This document shows, in pieces, positions 10,277 to 46,133 of a stretch of 64,000 bases of DNA. Origin of the DNA: a virus (taxonomy: Duplodnaviria > Heunggongvirae > Uroviricota > Caudoviricetes). Location of the stretch: the IMG/VR virus record IMGVR_UViG_3300046522_000748. One strand, written 5' to 3'. The stretch's first letter is position 1. Every line of letters starts with the position of its first letter. The notes below the pieces were generated by a model. The model did no database searches and was not told where the DNA came from. It saw only the letters and a program-made list of their open reading frames with translations. Both the position numbers and the translations under genes were made by a program.

Positions 10277-10729
10277 TTGCCATTTCTCCACTCGATTAAC
10301 AGCGATCACTACGGAACCTATCAGGCCCTTTGTGTCGGAATTGTAGACTATGGAAGATTGCTGCGCACTATGGGCGTTTCGGAGTATGAGCGGTGGTATT
10401 GGCGCTATGGCCCTCCTAAGTACTTTAATGCCTTTACGTCTATTACTTTGTATGATTACTTGGATAGCGACGGAAAATCCATGCACCTCGACCGTATGGC
10501 TATCTTTGTATCTACCAAAGAGGCGAACAAGGAATGGGATTCCAGAAATACTGCCTATGGAAGGGCCATCGGCGACAAACGAAAAAGACCATTCCCAGTC
10601 AGCACAACAGTTAAGGATATCGAAAAATGGCAAGCCAGTCTTCCTGCTGGAATACTGGTGCCAGAATGGATGAAAGAGTGTTCAACTCTCGAAGAACTCC
10701 GAATTGCTGACAGGAAAGCGCACGAATGA
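10277..10729 (+). CDS. hypothetical protein (possible TTG start)
   Basis: AAGGA 9 nt upstream of TTG. An ORF in another frame (10350..10673) was judged less protein-like. Confidence 0.3.
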   Translation: MPFLHSINSDHYGTYQALCVGIVDYGRLLRTMGVSEYERWYWRYGPPKYFNAFTSITLYDYLDSDGKSMHLDRMAIFVSTKEANKEWDSRNTAYGRAIGDKRKRPFPVSTTVKDIEKWQASLPAGILVPEWMKECSTLEELRIADRKAHE

Positions 10730-11016
10730 AGACGGCCAATGAGAGGTATCGATCCTCGAAGTCCTATCGGCAACGCTGGATTCTTCGTGAGTTGAATAAA
10801 ACAGGCCCAATCAGGGGTGATGATCCAGGTTTTGTGCTGGAGTTTGCTGAAGCGTGTTGTGCCAAGATTGAAGACGCGGCCAGTGGTACTAGATGTAGTC
10901 TACTCGATACCTATTTTCGGTATCTTCACAGCTTGGGGCAAATAAAGCGAGACATGCAGTGTGAGGCCACCAATGATGGTAAAATGCTGATTCATTGGTG
11001 GTACTCTACACATTAA
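10726..11016 (+). CDS. hypothetical protein (96 aa)
   Basis: ATGA overlap with the upstream gene. Confidence 0.35.
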   Translation: MKTANERYRSSKSYRQRWILRELNKTGPIRGDDPGFVLEFAEACCAKIEDAASGTRCSLLDTYFRYLHSLGQIKRDMQCEATNDGKMLIHWWYSTH

Positions 11017-37723: not shown

Positions 37724-39373
37724 TTAGGAAATCCGGAATTTACCAACCATCTGATTCAGTGAAACAACCACCTTGTCGAGGTCAATCAGGGAGTGTTGAG
37801 CCTCTTGAATGACATCGCGGCTTTGTTGGCTACCGGCGCTGATCGACTCAGCCGCTTTGGCCATCTCGGCGGTGGCTTGTGACTGTTCACTGGTCGCATG
37901 GTTGATGACTTGAATCTTTTCAACAATGGAATTCATGTCGGCGCGAATCCCTTCGATCTGGGTAATGGCCTGATCAGATAGAAGTACCCCATTGTTAACG
38001 GAATGGCTGGTTTTGGCCATCCGCTGGGTGGCCTGTGCGGTTTCCTCACCCACTGCCTTGATCATGTCGGCGATCTGCACGGTCGCTGTGGAGGTGCGGC
38101 TTGCAAGAGTTCTGACCTCATCAGCGACTACAGCAAATCCACGGCCTGATTCACCCGCCCGAGCGGCCTCAATCGCGGCGTTGAGCGCCAGAAGATTTGT
38201 TTGGTCAGCGATGGAGCGAATCACGTCAACGATGTTGCTGATGTCTTTAGAGCGTGCCTGGAGGTTGCTGATAACTTGTGACAGGTCATTGACCTGATTG
38301 CTGATGGCTTCGATCTCTCCCGCTACTGCGCCAACGGCTTTGGAGCTGCTTTGCGACTTCTCACTCGACTCCTGAACCACTCTGGCAGTCTCATGCGTGC
38401 TTTCAGCAATGTTGTGCATGGTGGCCGTAATTTCTTCGATAGTTGCAGCCGTTGTGGTCGCCTTATCGCTCTGCTCCTGAGAGTCGGCATGAATGACTCT
38501 CATCATTTGGCTCATGTCATGAAAGCCGGTTTTGAGCTTAGTGGCCTCATCTCGGATGACTGCAAACATCTCACGCAAGTCGCCAACAAATCTGTTGAAG
38601 GCAACGGCCATTTGGCCGGTTTCATCCTTGCTGTTCACCGGCAGCATGCGGGTCAAATCCCCTTGGCCAGAAGACAGGTCATTGAGTGCCTGGAGAAAGC
38701 TATTCAGTGAGCGAGATACCAGATTTCCAAGCAGGAATGCAGCGAGTAGCGCGATGATGAATGCGACGCCGCCCACCAGGGCCACTTCCATCACGACGCG
38801 TTTGCGTGCTTCGGTCACGTCTTTTAGATCGGCGTCGGCGGCAATCACGTATTTATCACCATTGGGGGCAATGGCGCGCACGTAGAGCGTTCTGAACTCG
38901 CCATCTGCTGATGAGTACTCAAGATTCCCGGTAGCGCCGGTCAGCAGCACGCTTTTGACGATATCCTTGGCTTCCTGATTATCATAGGTGTGCAAGTAGT
39001 AATTAACGCCCTTGCTAAGTTCATCGTCAGTCAGGGATGAGGTGGCGAATACCACATCGCCGCTTTCATTGAGAACAAAGGTATAGAGATAAGGCAGGCC
39101 TAGTTTTTTGGAGAGCTTGGTCAGCATCAGCGACTGGTCGGTGCCAAAAGAGTCGTCTTTCCCTGAGCGACCAACATTTTGGTGAACCTTCGGATCGACA
39201 GAGAATTCAACGGCATGAATTGCAGTCAGCAGCTTTGTGTCAATTTCATCCATCGCCATCTTTTCTGCGTTACCCCAAAAGGCTGATGCGAAAATGGCGA
39301 TGAGAATTAATGACACGGCGATAAATGAAACCCTGACTTTGCTATGAAAGCGCAGATTGTTGAACCACTGCAT
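37724..39373 (-). CDS. methyl-accepting chemotaxis protein (MCP)
   Basis: Two TM helices around a periplasmic domain, a HAMP region, then the highly conserved MCP signalling domain ([35 protein letters not shown]). Confidence 0.8.
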
Positions 39374-39573
39374 GGATGCTCCGATATATTTTATATTTAA
39401 TGATTAAGTTTGGCTGGCGCGGACTATACGCACCGCATTTAAAGGGGTCAACAGAGGACTGAGGGGTGGACTTACCACTGGTCGGCAAAAGGTGCTGGTT
39501 TTTTGTTGAAGTAACAAAAGCGCTGTTGCAGGGCTGATGGCGTGACAAATTCGAGCATGCATTTATGTCGGAA

Positions 39574-39610
39574 ATGAAAAAGCGGATACCAAATTGCTCT
39601 GGTATCCGCT
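39574..39610 (-). terminator. strong rho-independent terminator (minus strand)
   Basis: GCGGATACCA gagcaatt TGGTATCCGC followed by TTTTT on the minus strand. Confidence 0.55.
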
Positions 39611-39905
39611 ACATGTCGGTCGCACTACGCATCCCTATTGCTAGGGGCACTGAGTCTGAATCTCAGCCCGTTGCCAACTCTTTTCCGGTTAACCCACTAC
39701 TACCCGGATTTATCTTCGCCTTATGGGGAAAGCTAAACACAATGGCGTCCGCTGATCTCACGCTTTTGGCCAGTCATCTGTCGAGCGCACGTCGCTCCAA
39801 GCCTTGTGGGCGCAATGGCGGGTCACTTTCACTGGGATGTCCACCGCTATATTTCTCAGGCCGGGCATGGTTACCCATGCGTGATCGCACCTGAACAGCA
39901 CTTCA
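39611..39905 (-). ncRNA. candidate ~300-nt small RNA between IR element copy 4 and the terminator
   Basis: No minus-strand ORF of 60 aa or more. Bounded upstream by the hairpin/IR element and downstream by the terminator. Contains internal hairpins (CATGG-gtaac-CCATG). Confidence 0.3.
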
Positions 39906-39959
39906 TTGTATTGGAATGCGATGCAGTGGCATGACATTCCAATACAACCCCTTACGGGG
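39906..39959. repeat. hairpin-capped inverted-repeat element (family copy 4)
   Basis: TTGTATTGGAATG (39906-39918) pairs with CATTCCAATACAA (39935-39947), a 13-bp perfect stem, followed by CCCCTTACGGGG (39948-39959). Confidence 0.45.
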
Positions 39960-40079
39960 AGTGTTGGGCGTTTTATTCGGCAAGAACCTCGCGGCTCCCG
40001 CAGGCCAGACTACCTCTGGCGCCTTTTGGTAGACGTTTAATATGACCGTCTTGAAAAGACAAAAACCATCCAGTCATTC

Positions 40080-40156
40080 TGGAGCCGGTGACAGGAATCG
40101 AACCTGCATAACGATGATTTGCAATCATCAGCCTAGCCTTTCAGCAACACACCGGC
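40080..40156 (-). tRNA. tRNA-Cys (anticodon GCA), CCA encoded
   Basis: Acceptor GCCGGTG/CACCGGC, anticodon arm GATGA-TTGCAAA-TCATC, T arm GCAGG-TTCGATT-CCTGT, discriminator T plus CCA. Confidence 0.75.
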
Positions 40157-40401
40157 ATGCTCTTTTCAACTGATTAGGCAATCATTTAAGCCGTGCTTTT
40201 ATGATTTCCACTTCAGTCTATATTCTTGAACTTATGGTTAATATTCAGAAGGGTGAGCGTCAAATCTCACCCTCCTCGCCCGTTCTCAGGCGAACAACTG
40301 GATATGTTCAGTTGCCAATCCCTTATTACAGCACAGGGTCTGCCTCCCAATATTATGGCAAACGGGAGCACCTATTCACGGAAACCATCCGCAAAAACTG
40401 G

Positions 40402-40475
40402 CTGGCGATGCTGGGCTCGAACCAGCGACCTAATGATTAACAGTCATTTGCTACTACCAACTGAGCTAATCGCCA
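40402..40475 (-). tRNA. tRNA-Asn (anticodon GUU), no CCA encoded
   Basis: Acceptor TGGCGAT/ATCGCCA, U8-A9, D arm GCTC-AGTTGGTAG-TAGC, anticodon arm AATGA-CTGTTAA-TCATT, T arm GCTGG-TTCGAGC-CCAGC. Confidence 0.8.
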
Positions 40476-40678
40476 ACATAAACTCTAAAGATGTATTCGT
40501 GTAACACCGAGATTGTGGGCCTCCAATCGGCCAAGAAAAACAGTGTTACGCGAATGTTCTTGTCAGAAGTCTTTCAAATGCAAACACGCATAAAACAGAA
40601 CTATCTCCACTATAAGCCAAGTACGAGCCTGGATTATAGTGTGGCCAGAGCTTGCACCCTGACCGGAATAAAATTTCG

Positions 40679-41068
40679 TCAGTCTTCTCGGACAAACCTG
40701 AAGCCTGTAACCGCTGCGAAATCTGGCACATGGTCACCATTATAAATCAGCTTCCACTTTTTGTTCGCCAGCTCTTCCAAATGAAACATACGCTTATCGG
40801 TTTTCACCGCTACGGGCTTGATCATTTCGAATTCGCCCAGACCTTTTATTGAAAATTTGCCGTTTGACAAGTCAATCGACTCAACATCAACAATGTCTTT
40901 TACATCGGATTCGTCGTTCGAGAAAAAGTATGTGTTAAAGGTCAATCGCCATGTCCCATCTGGAAGTTCATCCAAGTGAAACAGGTTTTTCCGGATTTTA
41001 ACTGCTGTTACACCACTCAATTCAAGTGTAATGTCAGTTCCAACCAGCTCAATTGCCCTTCGAAACAT
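40679..41068 (-). CDS. hypothetical protein (129 aa)
   Basis: ORF between tRNA genes. Confidence 0.45.
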   Translation of the reverse strand: MFRRAIELVGTDITLELSGVTAVKIRKNLFHLDELPDGTWRLTFNTYFFSNDESDVKDIVDVESIDLSNGKFSIKGLGEFEMIKPVAVKTDKRMFHLEELANKKWKLIYNGDHVPDFAAVTGFRFVRED

Positions 41069-41116
41069 GCTGATCCCTTAAAAACTAGAGTGGTCATTTA
41101 GACCACTCTTTTTATT

Positions 41117-41204
41117 TGGCGGAGGCGAAGAGATTCGAACTCTTGGACCTGTTACAGTCGGCAGTTTTCAAGACTGCTGCCTTAAGCCACTCGGCCACAC
41201 CTCC
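41117..41204 (-). tRNA. tRNA-Ser (anticodon UGA), type II, CCA encoded
   Basis: Nearly identical in layout to E. coli tRNA-Ser(UGA): GGAGGTG-T-GGCCGAGTGG..., anticodon loop CTTGAAA, long variable arm, T arm AAGAG-TTCGAAT-CTCTT, then CGCCTCC-G-CCA. Confidence 0.85.
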
Positions 41205-41439
41205 AAACTTTTTAGAGCTATTAACTCATCATCAAGAGTTTCTGTTTCCAGTCACTCTGGATCATAAGTCAACTACGCCTATTATTGAACCGGGCGAAGC
41301 GGTTACCTCTTGCTACCACTGGTAGCCGAGCAACAAGAGTTTGGAATTTGCTAGCTGTTTTAATTTCTAGCTGGTTCCGAACCCTATGTCGCTATAATAA
41401 GCATCTAAGCATCGCGTGTCAACAAAAATCTCAACTATT

Positions 41440-42321
41440 TTAATCCTTTAGAAACATTCCGCAGCTCGCTTTTACATCAAAGCCGACTTTTGGCACGATT
41501 CTCCAGCTTTCTGCCTTGATCAGCGAGCGCAGGATCTCGGTATTGCGCTGAATGACCTCTTCGCACGGCTCCTTGCCATATTTTGCCGAATATGGGTTAT
41601 AGCGAACGATGTTCAGGTTCACCTTCAGGTCGCGCTCGTTGATCGCATTGGCAATGGCGACCATATCAGCTTCAGAGTCATTCTCGCCTTCGATGAAGGC
41701 GAAATGAATCTTTGGCACTTTATGGCTGAAATCTTGCCATGCCTTAAGCATATCGAGGCCATGTTCAGCCGTGTGCGCTCGGGCCAGCCAACGCTTACGG
41801 AACGATGGGTTCATGCTGTAGATCGAGTAATAGATCTCTGGATGCACCTCTGGAAAAATGTCTTCCAGTCGCAAGTCACCCATCGAGGTTGGAAAAATAG
41901 ACGACACCAGGAATTTGGATTCCAGGCCATGAGCTTGCGACTTCGCTGCCAGTCCATTGAGCAATTGCGCGCTGTCACTCAGCAGCAATGGGTTGTTCAG
42001 TGGCTCGCCCCTGGCCATGAAGTTCCAGTGGATGAGCTTGGCCGGAGCTTGGGTGTCGTAATGCTCCAAGATGCGTTCGGCCTGCTGCATGAAGTCGTCC
42101 ATTTCAGCATTGTCGAATTGATTCTGGCCGGTCGAGGTCAGGTGGCAAAATCGGCACGCTTGATCGCAGCCAGATTGCGAGGACAGGTAGCCAATGATGT
42201 ACTCAGGCACCCGGCGAACGTAACGGTTTTCATAGCGACCGACATTCGGCGCAGGGTACTCAAAGTTGACAGACTGATCCTGCTGACTGAAGTGGGCTTT
42301 GAAAATGATGTTCTGGCTCAT
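41440..42321 (-). CDS. RlmN/Cfr-family radical SAM RNA methyltransferase homologue, lacking the N-terminal domain
   Basis: SSQSGCDQACRFCHLTSTGQN matches RlmN [21 protein letters not shown]. Further matching blocks: MARGEPLNN, VSSIFPTSMG, IEGENDSEAD, LKVNLNIVRYNPYSAKYG, and the second catalytic Cys in DVKASCGMF. Confidence 0.6.
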   Translation of the reverse strand: MSQNIIFKAHFSQQDQSVNFEYPAPNVGRYENRYVRRVPEYIIGYLSSQSGCDQACRFCHLTSTGQNQFDNAEMDDFMQQAERILEHYDTQAPAKLIHWNFMARGEPLNNPLLLSDSAQLLNGLAAKSQAHGLESKFLVSSIFPTSMGDLRLEDIFPEVHPEIYYSIYSMNPSFRKRWLARAHTAEHGLDMLKAWQDFSHKVPKIHFAFIEGENDSEADMVAIANAINERDLKVNLNIVRYNPYSAKYGKEPCEEVIQRNTEILRSLIKAESWRIVPKVGFDVKASCGMFLKD

Positions 42322-42410
42322 GCGTGCCTCGGTATATTTTGTTTGTGTGATTATAGCTTGGCTTTGAAGATTTTCAATTTTTCATTGAGTCGAGTGCCAG
42401 CGGATAGGAT

Positions 42411-42686
42411 TTAATTCACGGCTTCTGCTGCACTCTCAATTGCATCATTTCTCATGCGCTCAATCGAGGTAATTAGTGCTGCTTTGGTCTCTGTGAATGG
42501 GATATCATCTTCAATGAAATATTGAATAGCCAAACAATGTGCGAAGATCGGTATTTGAGCATCAGTAATATCTTTTAGCCCATTTTCATCCACGGCTAAT
42601 TCTTCCGGGTTCCAGAAAAAAGGCTCCCTGCCCTGCATTGCTGGCATAAGAAGTTCCAATTTTGGAGTGAATGGAATTTTCTGCAT
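42411..42686 (-). CDS. hypothetical small protein
   Basis: 91-aa ORF. Confidence 0.35.
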   Translation of the reverse strand: MQKIPFTPKLELLMPAMQGREPFFWNPEELAVDENGLKDITDAQIPIFAHCLAIQYFIEDDIPFTETKAALITSIERMRNDAIESAAEAVN

Positions 42687-42730
42687 ATTATGGGTGCTCG
42701 TTGAGTGGGTTGATTGAGGTTCTTCGCCGA

Positions 42731-43696
42731 TCAGATTGAGGGCGATGAACGTGTTTGATTAAGTGATTGAGTTTGTTCGTAGCGCTTCGCTGCCTGTGGG
42801 TTCACGTCCAGGCTGGTCATGTCCAGGGCGTTGTGGTCAACGGCACGGTCGTGATCAATCAATTTACGCAGCGCTTGAGGTACATCCACTTCTGCGGTTG
42901 GGCGATATTTCTGCTCAATGTTCTGCATGGCGGTGGCCAGGGTATCGATCTGCGCCTGTAGATCCTTGCAGGACTTTTCAATTTCGTTGTACGGAGTAAC
43001 GAATCTGTTTCGCTGATCAATGCACATACGCTCGGCATCGTCGAGTTTCTGCATATTGAAGATCGACATGAAATCGATGATCGGCTCAATGGTAAAATCC
43101 AGAACGGTGTCAATCACTGACAAGCCCAGCACATTCTTATCGCTGGTGCGCTGTTCTTTGAGGGCGTCTTGAAAGGCATTGGCGTGAGCGAACGCTCTGG
43201 AAACGTCATCTTGAGCGCTGCTGGTATCTAGGGCTGAAATAACGGAGAAGACCTTGTTGCTGGAGATCGCGTCTGTAAATTCGCTCCAATAGGCACTGTT
43301 ACAAGATGCGGCTGCTTTGTCCAGATGTGCCACGGCAGTATCGCCTAGGCCTTTTAGCTCATAAAGCGGTGCAACAGCAGCCTCAAGGTTCTGGCGTTTT
43401 GCAAGCAAATCACCCCATGTCTTGTTGTCGGCTGGTTGAGCTTCGATAAGCTCCACAACGCGCTGATCCAGCCAAAGCTGAGTCGATTCACGGGATGACT
43501 GCTCAATCGTGCTAAATCGCTCCTGAGCGGCCTTCAACCCTTTCTCCGCTGGAGTGTCCATCACCGCATCAACAATTTGCCCCCAGAGGCCAGTCCGAGA
43601 CTGTTTATCTGATACTACGCCCTGCTCTGCTTGAGCAAGTTCTGAAGCAGCCGCACTAAAAGTCTTGCTGATCGCATCAATTGATGGGCTGCTCAT
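42731..43696 (-). CDS. hypothetical protein (321 aa)
   Basis: Long ORF preceded by an AAGGA Shine-Dalgarno and an AT-rich leader. Confidence 0.5.
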   Translation of the reverse strand: MSSPSIDAISKTFSAAASELAQAEQGVVSDKQSRTGLWGQIVDAVMDTPAEKGLKAAQERFSTIEQSSRESTQLWLDQRVVELIEAQPADNKTWGDLLAKRQNLEAAVAPLYELKGLGDTAVAHLDKAAASCNSAYWSEFTDAISSNKVFSVISALDTSSAQDDVSRAFAHANAFQDALKEQRTSDKNVLGLSVIDTVLDFTIEPIIDFMSIFNMQKLDDAERMCIDQRNRFVTPYNEIEKSCKDLQAQIDTLATAMQNIEQKYRPTAEVDVPQALRKLIDHDRAVDHNALDMTSLDVNPQAAKRYEQTQSLNQTRSSPSI

Positions 43697-43728
43697 TAAT
43701 AATCCTTAAATAAAAAAATTATATCACA

Positions 43729-43753
43729 GAAAAAAGGCCGCTTTCGCGACCTT
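43729..43753 (-). terminator. possible terminator (8-bp stem with one mismatch, then T-run)
   Basis: Minus strand: AAGGTCGC gaaa GCGGCCTT followed by TTTTTT. Confidence 0.3.
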
Positions 43754-44165
43754 GGGTATTACAAGCAACCGGGGATTTTCTTAGATCACTCTAAGAACCG
43801 CAATCAAGGCAGGCTCTATGCGGTTTTCTTCCGCATACTATTGAGTGTGCCATGACGCTGCCCCGCTCACCGCCACAACTGAACTTTCGCATGGGCTTGG
43901 TACTTGTTCAATCGTCACTTATCACTAACATTTCCGACAAATAACAAGTGATCACAGTTATCTGACCGTGGCCCACACCAGATTATGGTTGCCTCTTTAA
44001 TTTTCCTGGGATGCTGGCCCAGGCCGTCTTATCTTAACAATGCGGGGAAAAAACGGAACCCAGCCATTGCACACCGTCTTTTATGCTTCACACTCAGATT
44101 GTTTTGACGGTAGTTAGTCAACAATCCATCCCATAGCGTGAAGGTTTGCGGAATACACCGCAAAT

Positions 44166-44510
44166 TCAGATCATGATCCAGCGATACCCATCTGCAATCA
44201 TGGCGTCAATTGTTGCCAGATGTTCTTTGTATTGAGCGCCACCTTTGCCCTCAAAGGAATTCTCAAGAAGCCAATCACGGTAAAACTGAGTGGGGTTTCC
44301 AGAGTTGAGTGCGGCTTTCGTTACAGTGGTAGGTGTCTGAAAAACAACATCAAAATTAACAATCTTGCCCTTTTGCAAAGCGAGATTCATGCTCATGTTG
44401 CTACTACCTCTATAGCGTAAAATTTCGAGCGTGGCGCAGTAGACGCCTTGCTGGTCGAGTATTAGCTCAGCCAGCGCTGGATTGCAATCCCCAGAGTTCT
44501 TAACCACCAT
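44166..44510 (-). CDS. hypothetical protein (114 aa)
   Basis: ORF. Confidence 0.4.
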   Translation of the reverse strand: MVVKNSGDCNPALAELILDQQGVYCATLEILRYRGSSNMSMNLALQKGKIVNFDVVFQTPTTVTKAALNSGNPTQFYRDWLLENSFEGKGGAQYKEHLATIDAMIADGYRWIMI

Positions 44511-44537
44511 CGGCTTTATCTTTACCTTCTAAAAGCC

Positions 44538-44575
44538 GAAAAAACGCCAGCTTTACTTAGAAGCTGATGAAAGCG
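44538..44575 (-). terminator. rho-independent terminator ending the tRNA-Gly/tRNA-Met transcript
   Basis: Minus strand: CAGCTT ctaagta AAGCTG GCG followed by TTTTTT. Confidence 0.5.
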
Positions 44576-44839
44576 TCGATGTTCCTCATCTCAAAGGCCC
44601 CGATTTTCACAGTTCGGGGTTCTGATTTGCTGTCTACTCAGCAAAATTCCGGATGCAGTGTTGCTGCAAACATTGACCAACGCAGAGCCTCCCTAAAGTA
44701 TCGCTATACATAAAACCGAAACTTAATGTACTTACGATGACTCTTCGAGAGGACTGCAAACTTGCCTTGCGGCGAACTTTTACATGGTGCTAAAGTAATA
44801 CTTTATGACCACAACAACTGGTCTTACACCTTTTTAAAA

Positions 44840-44916
44840 TGGTCCGAGAGGAGGGACTTGAACCCCCGACCACCCGTTTATGAGACAGACGCTCTAACCA
44901 ACTGAGCTACCCTCGG
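44840..44916 (-). tRNA. tRNA-Met (anticodon CAU; elongator or Ile2-lysidine type), CCA encoded
   Basis: Acceptor CCGAGGG/CTCTCGG, U8-A9, D arm GCTC-AGTTGGTTA-GAGC, anticodon loop CTCATAA, T arm GGGGG-TTCAAGT-CCCTC, discriminator A plus CCA. Confidence 0.8.
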
Positions 44917-44923
44917 ACAACAC

Positions 44924-44997
44924 TGGAGCGGATAGCGGGAATCGAACCCGCGTCATTAGCTTGGAAGGCTAAGGTTCTACCATTAAACTATATCCGC
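44924..44997 (-). tRNA. tRNA-Gly (anticodon UCC), CCA encoded
   Basis: Acceptor GCGGATA/TATCCGC, anticodon arm TTAGC-CTTCCAA-GCTAA, T arm GCGGG-TTCGATT-CCCGC, discriminator T plus CCA. Confidence 0.85.
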
Positions 44998-45047
44998 TTA
45001 AACCCTGCGAAACTTAGCGTCTGCTTCATCTCGACTTGATGCTGGCT

Positions 45048-45076
45048 ATGATATCGAAGTAACTATCACCTGTCAA
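45048..45076 (-). promoter_or_regulatory. sigma70 promoter (TTGACA-N17-TATCAT), proximal copy, reading into the tRNA-Gly/Met operon
   Basis: Minus strand: TTGACA (45071-45076) ggtgatagttacttcga TATCAT (45048-45053). Confidence 0.45.
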
Positions 45077-45204
45077 CATTTATTTTCTATTAAATTCAAC
45101 AACTTGCGTGAATCTTAAAAATAATGGCCAGACCGTCATCATACTGCGTCCATGAGAGAGGATCTGGCTCTGGCCCTGCTTAAAAGCTCGACTTAGTGTT
45201 GGCT

Positions 45205-45233
45205 ATGATATAGAAGTAACTATCACCTGTCAA
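45205..45233 (-). promoter_or_regulatory. sigma70 promoter (TTGACA-N17-TATCAT), distal duplicated copy
   Basis: Same sequence, 157 bp upstream of the proximal copy. Confidence 0.45.
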
Positions 45234-45362
45234 CATTTATTTTATATTAAACTCAACAGCTTGCGTGAATCTGGAAAAAAATGGCCAGACCGTCATCATG
45301 TTACATCCATGAGAGGGGATCTGGCGCTGTTGGGTTTATCGTAATTATAATTTCGAATTAAG

Positions 45363-46133
45363 TCAACGCTTTGCGACGATTTCCTTGACGGTGTACCCAA
45401 ATCCCGCGACCCACTCTCTGTAGATCGCCGTTTCGTACTGCCGGGTGGCCGTAAGAAAATTCCGGTTCTGCGAACCCAGGTTCTCCAGAAGCGTGGCCAA
45501 GGCAGCGGCAGGCATATCCATCTTTTGGCAAGGGATCGTGTCCATGACCGCATGGCTACTGAGGCCGACCATCACAGCCTGATCAGCTTCGATGCTGCCG
45601 AGGAATTCGATGGTTGAGCTTTGCCCAAATGTCCGCTCGGTTCGCTCGTTTGTTCGAATGCACCTGACGACATCCACCATCAGGTATGGATTGGACTCCA
45701 GTATGTCCAGTGCATCAGTCCAGATGGTGAACAAGTACACGGATGTGCCGCCCTGAGCCTCATGTGACGCAGGATGCTTGCTCTTGGCCATGCTGAGGCC
45801 TTCGTCATGGAAATACTTGCGCATGGGACTGATATACCCTTCAAATCCCCTGCCCTGTTGCGGATTTTTGCCAAACATTGGTGAGAAAAACATCAACATC
45901 TGGTTGTTCACGTACAGGGTCGTTTTCCCGCTGGTATGATAGTGCTGCGAGAACACAATGTTTTTCTCAGCCATATCGACGCGGCGTTCAGATGACCAGG
46001 GCTCGTTGGCATCAAACAGCTTTGGCAGGGCGTCGCTACGGTTCATGTAGTTGTAAATGGTGTGCGAGAAATCGAGCTTTTCGATCTTATCTAGGCCTTC
46101 ATTCCTCACAGCCATTAGCACCAAGTTGCCCAT
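45363..46133 (-). CDS. hypothetical protein (256 aa)
   Basis: ORF. Confidence 0.5.
   Translation of the reverse strand: MGNLVLMAVRNEGLDKIEKLDFSHTIYNYMNRSDALPKLFDANEPWSSERRVDMAEKNIVFSQHYHTSGKTTLYVNNQMLMFFSPMFGKNPQQGRGFEGYISPMRKYFHDEGLSMAKSKHPASHEAQGGTSVYLFTIWTDALDILESNPYLMVDVVRCIRTNERTERTFGQSSTIEFLGSIEADQAVMVGLSSHAVMDTIPCQKMDMPAAALATLLENLGSQNRNFLTATRQYETAIYREWVAGFGYTVKEIVAKR

Follow-up and report, generated by a model that had tools for sequence, protein, structure and literature searches.

A putative tyrosine-type sister family of RlmN and Cfr found mainly in giant mobile elements

Does a short radical S-adenosylmethionine (SAM) gene lying among tRNA genes encode a truncated RlmN or Cfr, or an enzyme of another kind? 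The question is raised by a 64,000-nt stretch of DNA from a Caudoviricetes virus (IMG/VR record IMGVR_UViG_3300046522_000748), the whole of which is referred to here as the window. The gene, at 41440..42321 on the minus strand, encodes a 293-aa protein that an initial annotation had assigned to the RlmN/Cfr family of methyltransferases, with the suggestion that it might modify tRNAs or ribosomes and, if Cfr-like, confer multidrug resistance. Based on profile, fold and alignment comparisons, we place the predicted protein in a separate, uncharacterised sister family of the class A methylases RlmN and Cfr, as an orthologue of neither. The family is widespread, is concentrated in giant mobile elements and, judging from alignments, has a tyrosine where class A enzymes carry the second of their two defining cysteines.

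The open reading frame (ORF) is intact and starts with ATG. A GAGG ribosome-binding site, as read from the sequence, lies 5 nt ahead of the start codon (42327..42330, minus strand), and upstream of it is a sigma-70-like promoter, by consensus match only (TTGAAA-16-TATAAT, 11/12 matches; 42350..42377, minus strand). A 236-aa ORF antisense to the gene (41704-42414, plus strand) was set aside as a shadow ORF; similar antisense ORFs "cluster" across homologous loci for no other reason than conservation of the sense gene.

Membership of the radical SAM superfamily is in no real doubt from motif and fold, even with the Pfam Radical_SAM model (PF04055) scoring 28.0 bits, just under its gathering threshold of 29.5. 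The initial annotation had proposed a hidden Markov model (HMM) search as its test, and the outcome was mixed: the best curated matches were indeed RlmN and Cfr and not an unrelated family, but the scores were low. The top seven NCBIfam matches were all RlmN or Cfr models and every one fell far below its cutoff, with 46.2 bits against 290 for the RlmN equivalog TIGR00048 (a whole-protein HMM), and 41.1 against 550, 42.9 against 530 and 38.3 against 468 bits for the Cfr equivalogs TIGR04432, NF000424 and NF011024, respectively. The sole strong library match was PHROG 27142 ("Fe-S-cluster redox domain-containing"; E 1.3e-109, 367.7 bits), which aligned residues 4-292 to positions 3-300 of 300. 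No defense-system model in PADLOC-DB 2.0 matched the protein. An HMM built for the family separated its members (277-506 bits) from the phage "mini-RlmN" proteins Tunturi_5 gp170 and 05F01 gene_104 (about 90 bits each) and from E. coli RlmN (38 bits). Searched against the PDB, the family profile matched Cfr (9p0p, E 1.4e-13) and RlmN (E ~1e-8) and no others. An AlphaFold2 model computed from a 76-sequence alignment was confident (predicted local distance difference test [pLDDT] score 95.1, predicted template modeling score 0.91) and had an RlmN-type fold; Foldseek ranked RlmN and Cfr at the top, with template modeling (TM) scores of 0.74-0.80, and the next family at 0.52. Because of the NCBIfam, PDB-profile and Foldseek rankings, RlmN/Cfr is the closest known kind of enzyme, so that the original family assignment holds as a statement about the nearest characterized relatives and fails as a statement of equivalog membership. 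JGI and NCBI pipelines nevertheless label family members "adenine C2-methylase RlmN" or "radical SAM enzyme, Cfr family", and JGI gives the first of these labels to the window protein itself.

Alignment to E. coli RlmN, with numbering checked against the K-12 sequence, spans RlmN residues 76-361 and shows what has been kept. The CX3CX2C motif that would hold the [4Fe-4S]/SAM cluster lies in the stretch Y45-LSSQSG-C52-DQA-C56-RF-C59-HLT (cysteine codons at 42145..42168, minus strand), where C52, C56 and C59 correspond to RlmN C125, C129 and C132. The protein ends in G280-FDVKAS-C287-GMF, with C287 (codon 41461..41463, minus strand) equivalent to the methyl-carrier cysteine (RlmN C355, Cfr C338) and G288 to RlmN G356; GFDVKASCGMF aligns to DDIDAACGQL, and the family and RlmN/Cfr have the whole methyl-carrier loop GxD[IV]xA[AS]CG in common. 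Glu31 (codon 42229..42231, minus strand) is the equivalent of RlmN E105, and the GEP SAM-binding motif is retained. Both the cluster motif and the C-terminal catalytic cysteine had been recognized from the start, as had the absence of the N-terminal domain: the helical domain formed by RlmN residues 1-75 is missing, together with the C-terminal tail, leaving the protein 75 residues shorter than RlmN at one end and 23 at the other. The possibility that the missing domain had split off into the 91-aa ORF upstream was rejected, as that ORF has no similarity to RlmN.

The departure from RlmN and Cfr is at Tyr45 (codon 42187..42189, minus strand), which from the alignments occupies the site of RlmN C118 and Cfr C105. 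Class A radical SAM methylases are defined by their use of two conserved cysteines, of which this second one is reported to be indispensable for resolving the covalent enzyme-RNA intermediate (PMC9692996). We examined conservation in the 120 closest homologues and in 150 representatives of clusters at 50% identity, and the two sets showed the same pattern. Among the representatives, the three cluster cysteines were present in 149/149 and position 287 was Cys in 149/150, whereas position 45 was Tyr in 148/149 and Cys in a single sequence; Glu31 was invariant. This strong conservation of catalytic residues indicates an enzyme under selection, and since the 150 representatives have only four conserved cysteines, a single [4Fe-4S] cluster and no auxiliary cluster is expected. 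The family also has invariant residues of its own (S12, D15, S17, N19, R33, R37, R104, Y164, Y165, Y168, W178, H206, R240, and Y241), and its predicted active-site surroundings are remodelled relative to RlmN. Because the cysteine reported as essential is a near-invariant tyrosine, one cannot take it for granted that m2A or m8A is formed in the textbook manner, and Cfr-like resistance, raised by the initial annotation, is unlikely.

The family is a large one: matches at E<1e-30 covered at least 419 clusters at 50% identity, and those at E<1e-3 covered 2759, with the same architecture of ~290 aa across hundreds of diverse members; longer members, up to 497 aa, had no extra Pfam domain. Jumbo phage carriers, at 41-51% identity, include Pseudomonas phages 201phi2-1 (gp434), Psa21, Phabio, RVTF4, D6 and Viktualia, Caulobacter phages CcrColossus and CcrPW, and Brevundimonas jumbo phages. 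A family gene was likewise present on no fewer than 94 IMG/VR contigs; of the 80 that were kept, 26 have a length of ≥200 kb. Pseudomonas megaplasmids of ~0.9-1.2 Mb (pMPPla107, the pBASL58-type plasmid of Leaf58, the FeN3W plasmid, and a P. silesiensis plasmid) carry homologues at 58-68% identity, and further members of this megaplasmid group (pMPCFBP13716, pPLMAXa, and a P. serbica plasmid) do so at 60-66%. The family also occurs in chromosomes and metagenome-assembled genomes (MAGs) of Planctomycetota, Myxococcota, Saccharibacteria, actinomycetes, and alphaproteobacteria. A literature search returned no publication on the tyrosine-type family.

The genomic surroundings offer two clues to function. 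In the window, the gene does lie among tRNA genes, as first described, with five on the same strand within 5 kb. Downstream of its stop codon are tRNA-Ser(UGA) at a distance of 236 nt (41117..41204, with a promoter-like site at 41394-41422 and a terminator-like hairpin at 41087-41109), tRNA-Asn(GUU) (40399-40475), and tRNA-Cys(GCA), found with ARAGORN (40080-40156); upstream are tRNA-Met(CAU) and tRNA-Gly(UCC) (44840..44997). All are on the minus strand and together form a loose five-tRNA array (40080-44997) that encloses the radical SAM gene. With the Rfam tRNA model, whose gathering score is 29, the other five tRNAs detected reached 56-76 bits but the tRNA-Cys only 32.9, and it may be atypical or degenerate.

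Across the family, 8 of the 62 lineages defined at 70% identity have a same-strand tRNA gene no more than 1 kb away, for which a rough binomial calculation gives p = 0.001 against an assumed background of ~3.5% that is an estimate and not a measured null. A relative (L085), whose radical SAM protein is 74% identical to that of the window, has the same order of radical SAM gene followed by tRNA-Ser(UGA). In a clade of Pseudomonas jumbo-phage contigs (L089-L095), an array ending in Leu, Leu, Ser(UGA), Cys, and Thr is followed by the gene ~400-460 nt on. At locus L116 the gene sits within a 22-tRNA array, the next tRNA beginning 13 nt past its stop codon, and at L136 and L110 an array of 21 tRNAs encloses or adjoins the gene. 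Further loci with a tRNA on the same strand no more than 1 kb away are L146, L048/L049, and L062. Tested as a sign of common descent, same-anticodon tRNAs of the window and the jumbo-phage arrays (60-93% identical) were judged uninformative.

Several other features of the surroundings deserve mention. The tRNA closest to the gene, or one not far from it, was unusually often a serine tRNA (UGA, GCU, GGA; window 41117-41204; L085 3162-3249; L048/L049; L055-L057; L089-L095), a pattern that rests on about three independent lineages and is not statistically meaningful. MenT3, a toxin of the AbiEii family, is reported to prefer tRNA-Ser. CUA-anticodon tRNAs of the amber-suppressor type (called "Pyl" by ARAGORN) lie ~2 kb upstream of the gene in viral contigs of up to 453 kb (L146 at ~6132; L151 and L160 at ~5871 and ~5951), which hints at stop-codon recoding in those phages. 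Inside the 22-tRNA array of L116, a 187-aa ORF (10388-10951) has a weak 2H phosphoesterase match (PF22547, E 1.5e-4, under the gathering score), a domain type linked to RNA end repair. Other genes of RNA metabolism near homologues are a VacB/RNase II exoribonuclease directly downstream in the FeN3W plasmid (L002 6921-8858) and a tRNA nucleotidyltransferase 1.7 kb downstream in CcrColossus (L008 8616-9770).

The second clue comes from bacterial genomes. In 36 of 72 genome loci (L010-L081), which are from Planctomycetota, Myxococcota and a small number of MAGs, an AbiEii-type nucleotidyltransferase gene (PF08843; PADLOC AbiEii, E 1.5e-35) lies next to the radical SAM gene in divergent orientation, and this neighbor was the only gene with a PADLOC match in the bacterial homologue loci. 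The AbiEii gene is followed by one to three TIGR02996 leucine-rich repeat (LRR) proteins, in 22 loci next by a P-loop sulfotransferase-like protein, and sometimes by a sulfatase; the cassette is also present at L083 4987-11032 and L082 3086-10942. In L052 the linkage to AbiEii is kept despite a rearranged gene order. Pfam records accompany the called genes at two loci, L082 and L083, and at neither is an AbiEi antitoxin family recorded. DUF1814/MenT/AbiEii nucleotidyltransferases modify tRNA acceptor ends (PMC7450476, PMC10435456, PMC11375011), and the AbiEii-LRR-sulfotransferase-like cassette may represent an undescribed toxin or defense-like system. The neighboring sulfatases raised the possibility of a primary role in sulfatase maturation (anSME-like), which was rejected because a sulfatase occurs in only 8-11 loci and auxiliary-cluster cysteines are lacking.

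Given its recurrence in tRNA arrays and its AbiEii/MenT-type linkage in Planctomycetota and Myxococcota, tRNA is the likely substrate; both clues point to tRNA and neither is proof. The reading that we favor, at roughly even chances, is of a functional single-domain radical SAM enzyme with RlmN-type methyl-cysteine chemistry acting on RNA, most likely tRNA. One SAM would methylate Cys287, and a second would be cleaved to a 5'-deoxyadenosyl radical that activates the S-methyl group by hydrogen abstraction, after which the resulting methylene radical would add to an sp2 carbon of a base. In the next step, Tyr45 would stand in for the missing cysteine as general base and radical quencher and assist release, perhaps helped by the family-specific aromatic cluster Y164/Y165/Y168/Y241/W178. 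According to the review that defines class A enzymes (PMC9692996), newer work regards C118 not as a disulfide partner but as the general base setting off radical fragmentation, a role that a tyrosine could in principle fill. On a phage or megaplasmid, such an enzyme might modify the element's own tRNAs or those of the host, for instance to adjust decoding or to guard tRNAs against tRNA-targeting defenses.

A more elaborate form of this proposal, which we rate as rather improbable, would make the family a new mechanistic subclass in which the tyrosine and a Tyr/Trp relay replace the resolving cysteine. Giant phages and megaplasmids would use the enzyme, often co-transcribed with tRNA arrays of their own, to place a C-methyl or related mark on tRNA and so keep translation safe from host toxins that attack tRNA, such as AbiEii/MenT nucleotidyltransferases or anticodon nucleases. 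The Planctomycetota and Myxococcota enzymes would accompany an AbiEii cassette devoid of the canonical AbiEi antitoxin, as a partner for self-protection or regulation.

Several observations weigh against methyl-cysteine chemistry on tRNA. Because the resolving cysteine is reported as essential and the family has no other conserved cysteine, tyrosine as its substitute is conjecture. YYSxYS replaces SLHAPN of RlmN, and R33, R36, R37, R104 and R240 are specific to the family; with so many residues of the active-site region changed, the substrate may differ greatly from that of RlmN. The tRNA link proposed by the initial annotation is plausible in that it appears repeatedly in independent lineages of phages and plasmids, but 54 of the 62 lineages have no tRNA within 1 kb, among them pMPPla107, the FeN3W plasmid, 201phi2-1, and CcrColossus, and the background behind the binomial estimate is rough. 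The nearby window tRNAs (Ser, Asn, Cys, Met, Gly, Thr) are not known to be among the isoacceptors with m2A37 in E. coli; all have A37, which does not discriminate. The literature search yielded no biochemical evidence for any family member.

Among the alternatives, the one that survives best, as a possible though clearly less probable account, is that the RlmN-like scaffold has been repurposed. Cys287 could then serve as a hydrogen-atom donor and Tyr45 as a radical relay in non-methylating chemistry, as in spore photoproduct lyase or radical SAM epimerases, or the substrate could be something other than RNA, for example DNA of the phage or plasmid, a free nucleotide, or a protein. Loss of the second class-A-defining cysteine and of the RNA-binding N-terminal domain fits such a change of function, as does a remodelled active site, indicated by invariant family-specific aromatics (Y45, Y164, Y165, Y168, Y241, W178, W195) and by R104 and R240 beside the SAM motifs. 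Most loci, moreover, lack a nearby tRNA, and the nucleotidyltransferase, P-loop sulfotransferase-like protein and occasional sulfatase of the bacterial loci could belong to a small-molecule or nucleotide pathway. Set against these points, the family has the entire methyl-carrier loop motif in common with RlmN/Cfr, beyond the cysteine alone; the E105 equivalent is kept, the gene is repeatedly embedded in phage tRNA arrays, and there is no auxiliary cluster or extra domain to hint at another substrate class.

That the protein is a genuine RlmN/Cfr orthologue, making m2A or m8A at 23S rRNA A2503 (and at tRNA A37) and in a Cfr-like copy conferring multidrug resistance, would agree with its best curated HMM matches and with the pipeline labels. 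We regard this as quite unlikely: scores in both directions are far too low, that of E. coli RlmN on the family HMM included, Tyr replaces C118/C105, and both the N-terminal domain and the C-terminal tail are missing. Hosts of these phages and plasmids, moreover, presumably carry an rlmN of their own.

Slimmer still are the prospects of a natural crosslinker, an enzyme that stalls as a covalent Cys287-CH2-RNA adduct and so tags or blocks its target RNA stoichiometrically. RlmN C118A and Cfr C105 mutants do accumulate a covalent protein-RNA intermediate (PMC9692996; PDB 5hr6, 5hr7), and no alternative conserved cysteine is present, but the invariance of Tyr45 suggests a catalytic role over simple loss, a suicide enzyme is ill-suited to housekeeping-like placement in tRNA operons, and there is no precedent. 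A functionless remnant of a 5'-truncated rlmN, as the shortened termini might suggest, is effectively refuted by the ~290-aa architecture and invariant catalytic residues of hundreds of members, by the intact ORF with its promoter-like site and ribosome-binding site, by the confident model (pLDDT 95), and by an upstream 91-aa ORF that is no split-off N-terminal domain.

The rest of the window consists almost entirely of ORFans. Neighboring ORFs of 91, 321, 129, 114, 256, 223, 201, 178 and 1220 aa had no Pfam or PHROG match, and those of 91, 321 and 129 aa had no NCBIfam match; homologues of the neighbors lie beside the gene in the closest clade only and at none of the other loci. The exception is a methyl-accepting chemotaxis protein gene (37724-39373, minus strand) with HAMP and MCPsignal domains and a match to PHROG 8572. 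A gene for such a protein also lies ~2.6 kb from the radical SAM homologue on the FeN3W megaplasmid (L002 1795-3417). The exact window protein is also encoded on a JGI contig of 1,136,521 bp, and the window is consistent with a pMPPla107-like megaplasmid. Megablast of positions 39000-46000 found no near-identical DNA in the phage collection and, among plasmids, a sole match of 40 nt within the tRNA-Ser gene (41158-41197), so that the element itself is absent from the phage and plasmid collections searched.

On pMPPla107 (L001 147-11387) and a related metagenomic contig (L005 1-16091), the homologue lies within a long same-strand run of proteins of ~270-520 aa, with an operon of 356-449 aa proteins around it that gave no Pfam hits; the nine proteins from pMPPla107 had no significant Pfam match, and those of the contig had no Pfam match on record. 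The viral clade around L117 showed T4-like synteny and nothing more, its neighbors resembling UvsX, gp32 and terminase by eye, and these were not taken to be functional partners.

Radical methylation of sp2 carbons has its textbook example in RlmN and Cfr, neither of whose two cysteines is considered dispensable. With the methyl-carrier cysteine kept and the other site occupied by Tyr (148/149), the family offers a ready-made natural test of the role of the second cysteine. The recurrence in tRNA arrays, together with the AbiEii-type neighbors of the bacterial cousins, points to tRNA modification as an unexplored layer of the conflict that sets mobile elements against their hosts. In practical terms, automatic "RlmN" or "Cfr family" labels on these genes should not be taken to mark antibiotic-resistance determinants.

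Compared with known systems, the window protein has the CX3CX2C motif, the E105 equivalent, GEP and the methyl-carrier loop in common with RlmN, the C2-methyltransferase of 23S rRNA A2503 and tRNA A37 (TIGR00048; PDB 3rfa, 5hr7, 6fz6), from which it differs in its overall identity of ~17-21% and in the tyrosine at C118. Cfr, the A2503 C8-methyltransferase and resistance determinant (TIGR04432/NF000424; PDB 9p0p), is built on the same class A scaffold with methyl-carrier C338 and is the best profile-to-PDB match, but its C105 is Tyr and its N-terminal domain is missing in the window family, which is found not in resistance contexts but in jumbo phages, megaplasmids, and AbiEii cassettes. Far closer are the PHROG 27142 phage proteins (201phi2-1 gp434, Psa21, Phabio, CcrColossus gp283, and those of Brevundimonas jumbo phages), which at 41-51% identity have the same length and the same invariant residues, Tyr included; within the family, the window copy belongs to the Pseudomonas-megaplasmid branch, at 66-68% identity to the pMPPla107 protein. 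Two further phage proteins likewise lack the N-terminal domain and retain CX3CX2C and an SCGMF-type loop, namely gp170 of Tunturiibacter phage Tunturi_5 (L086 1375-2373) and gene_104 of Klebsiella phage 05F01 (L087 1351-2280), the latter lying between an ADP-ribosylation gene and nrdD. Because they differ at the C118 site, with Cys kept in Tunturi_5 and Val in 05F01, phages harbor several distinct lineages of mini-RlmN, of which the tyrosine type is one.

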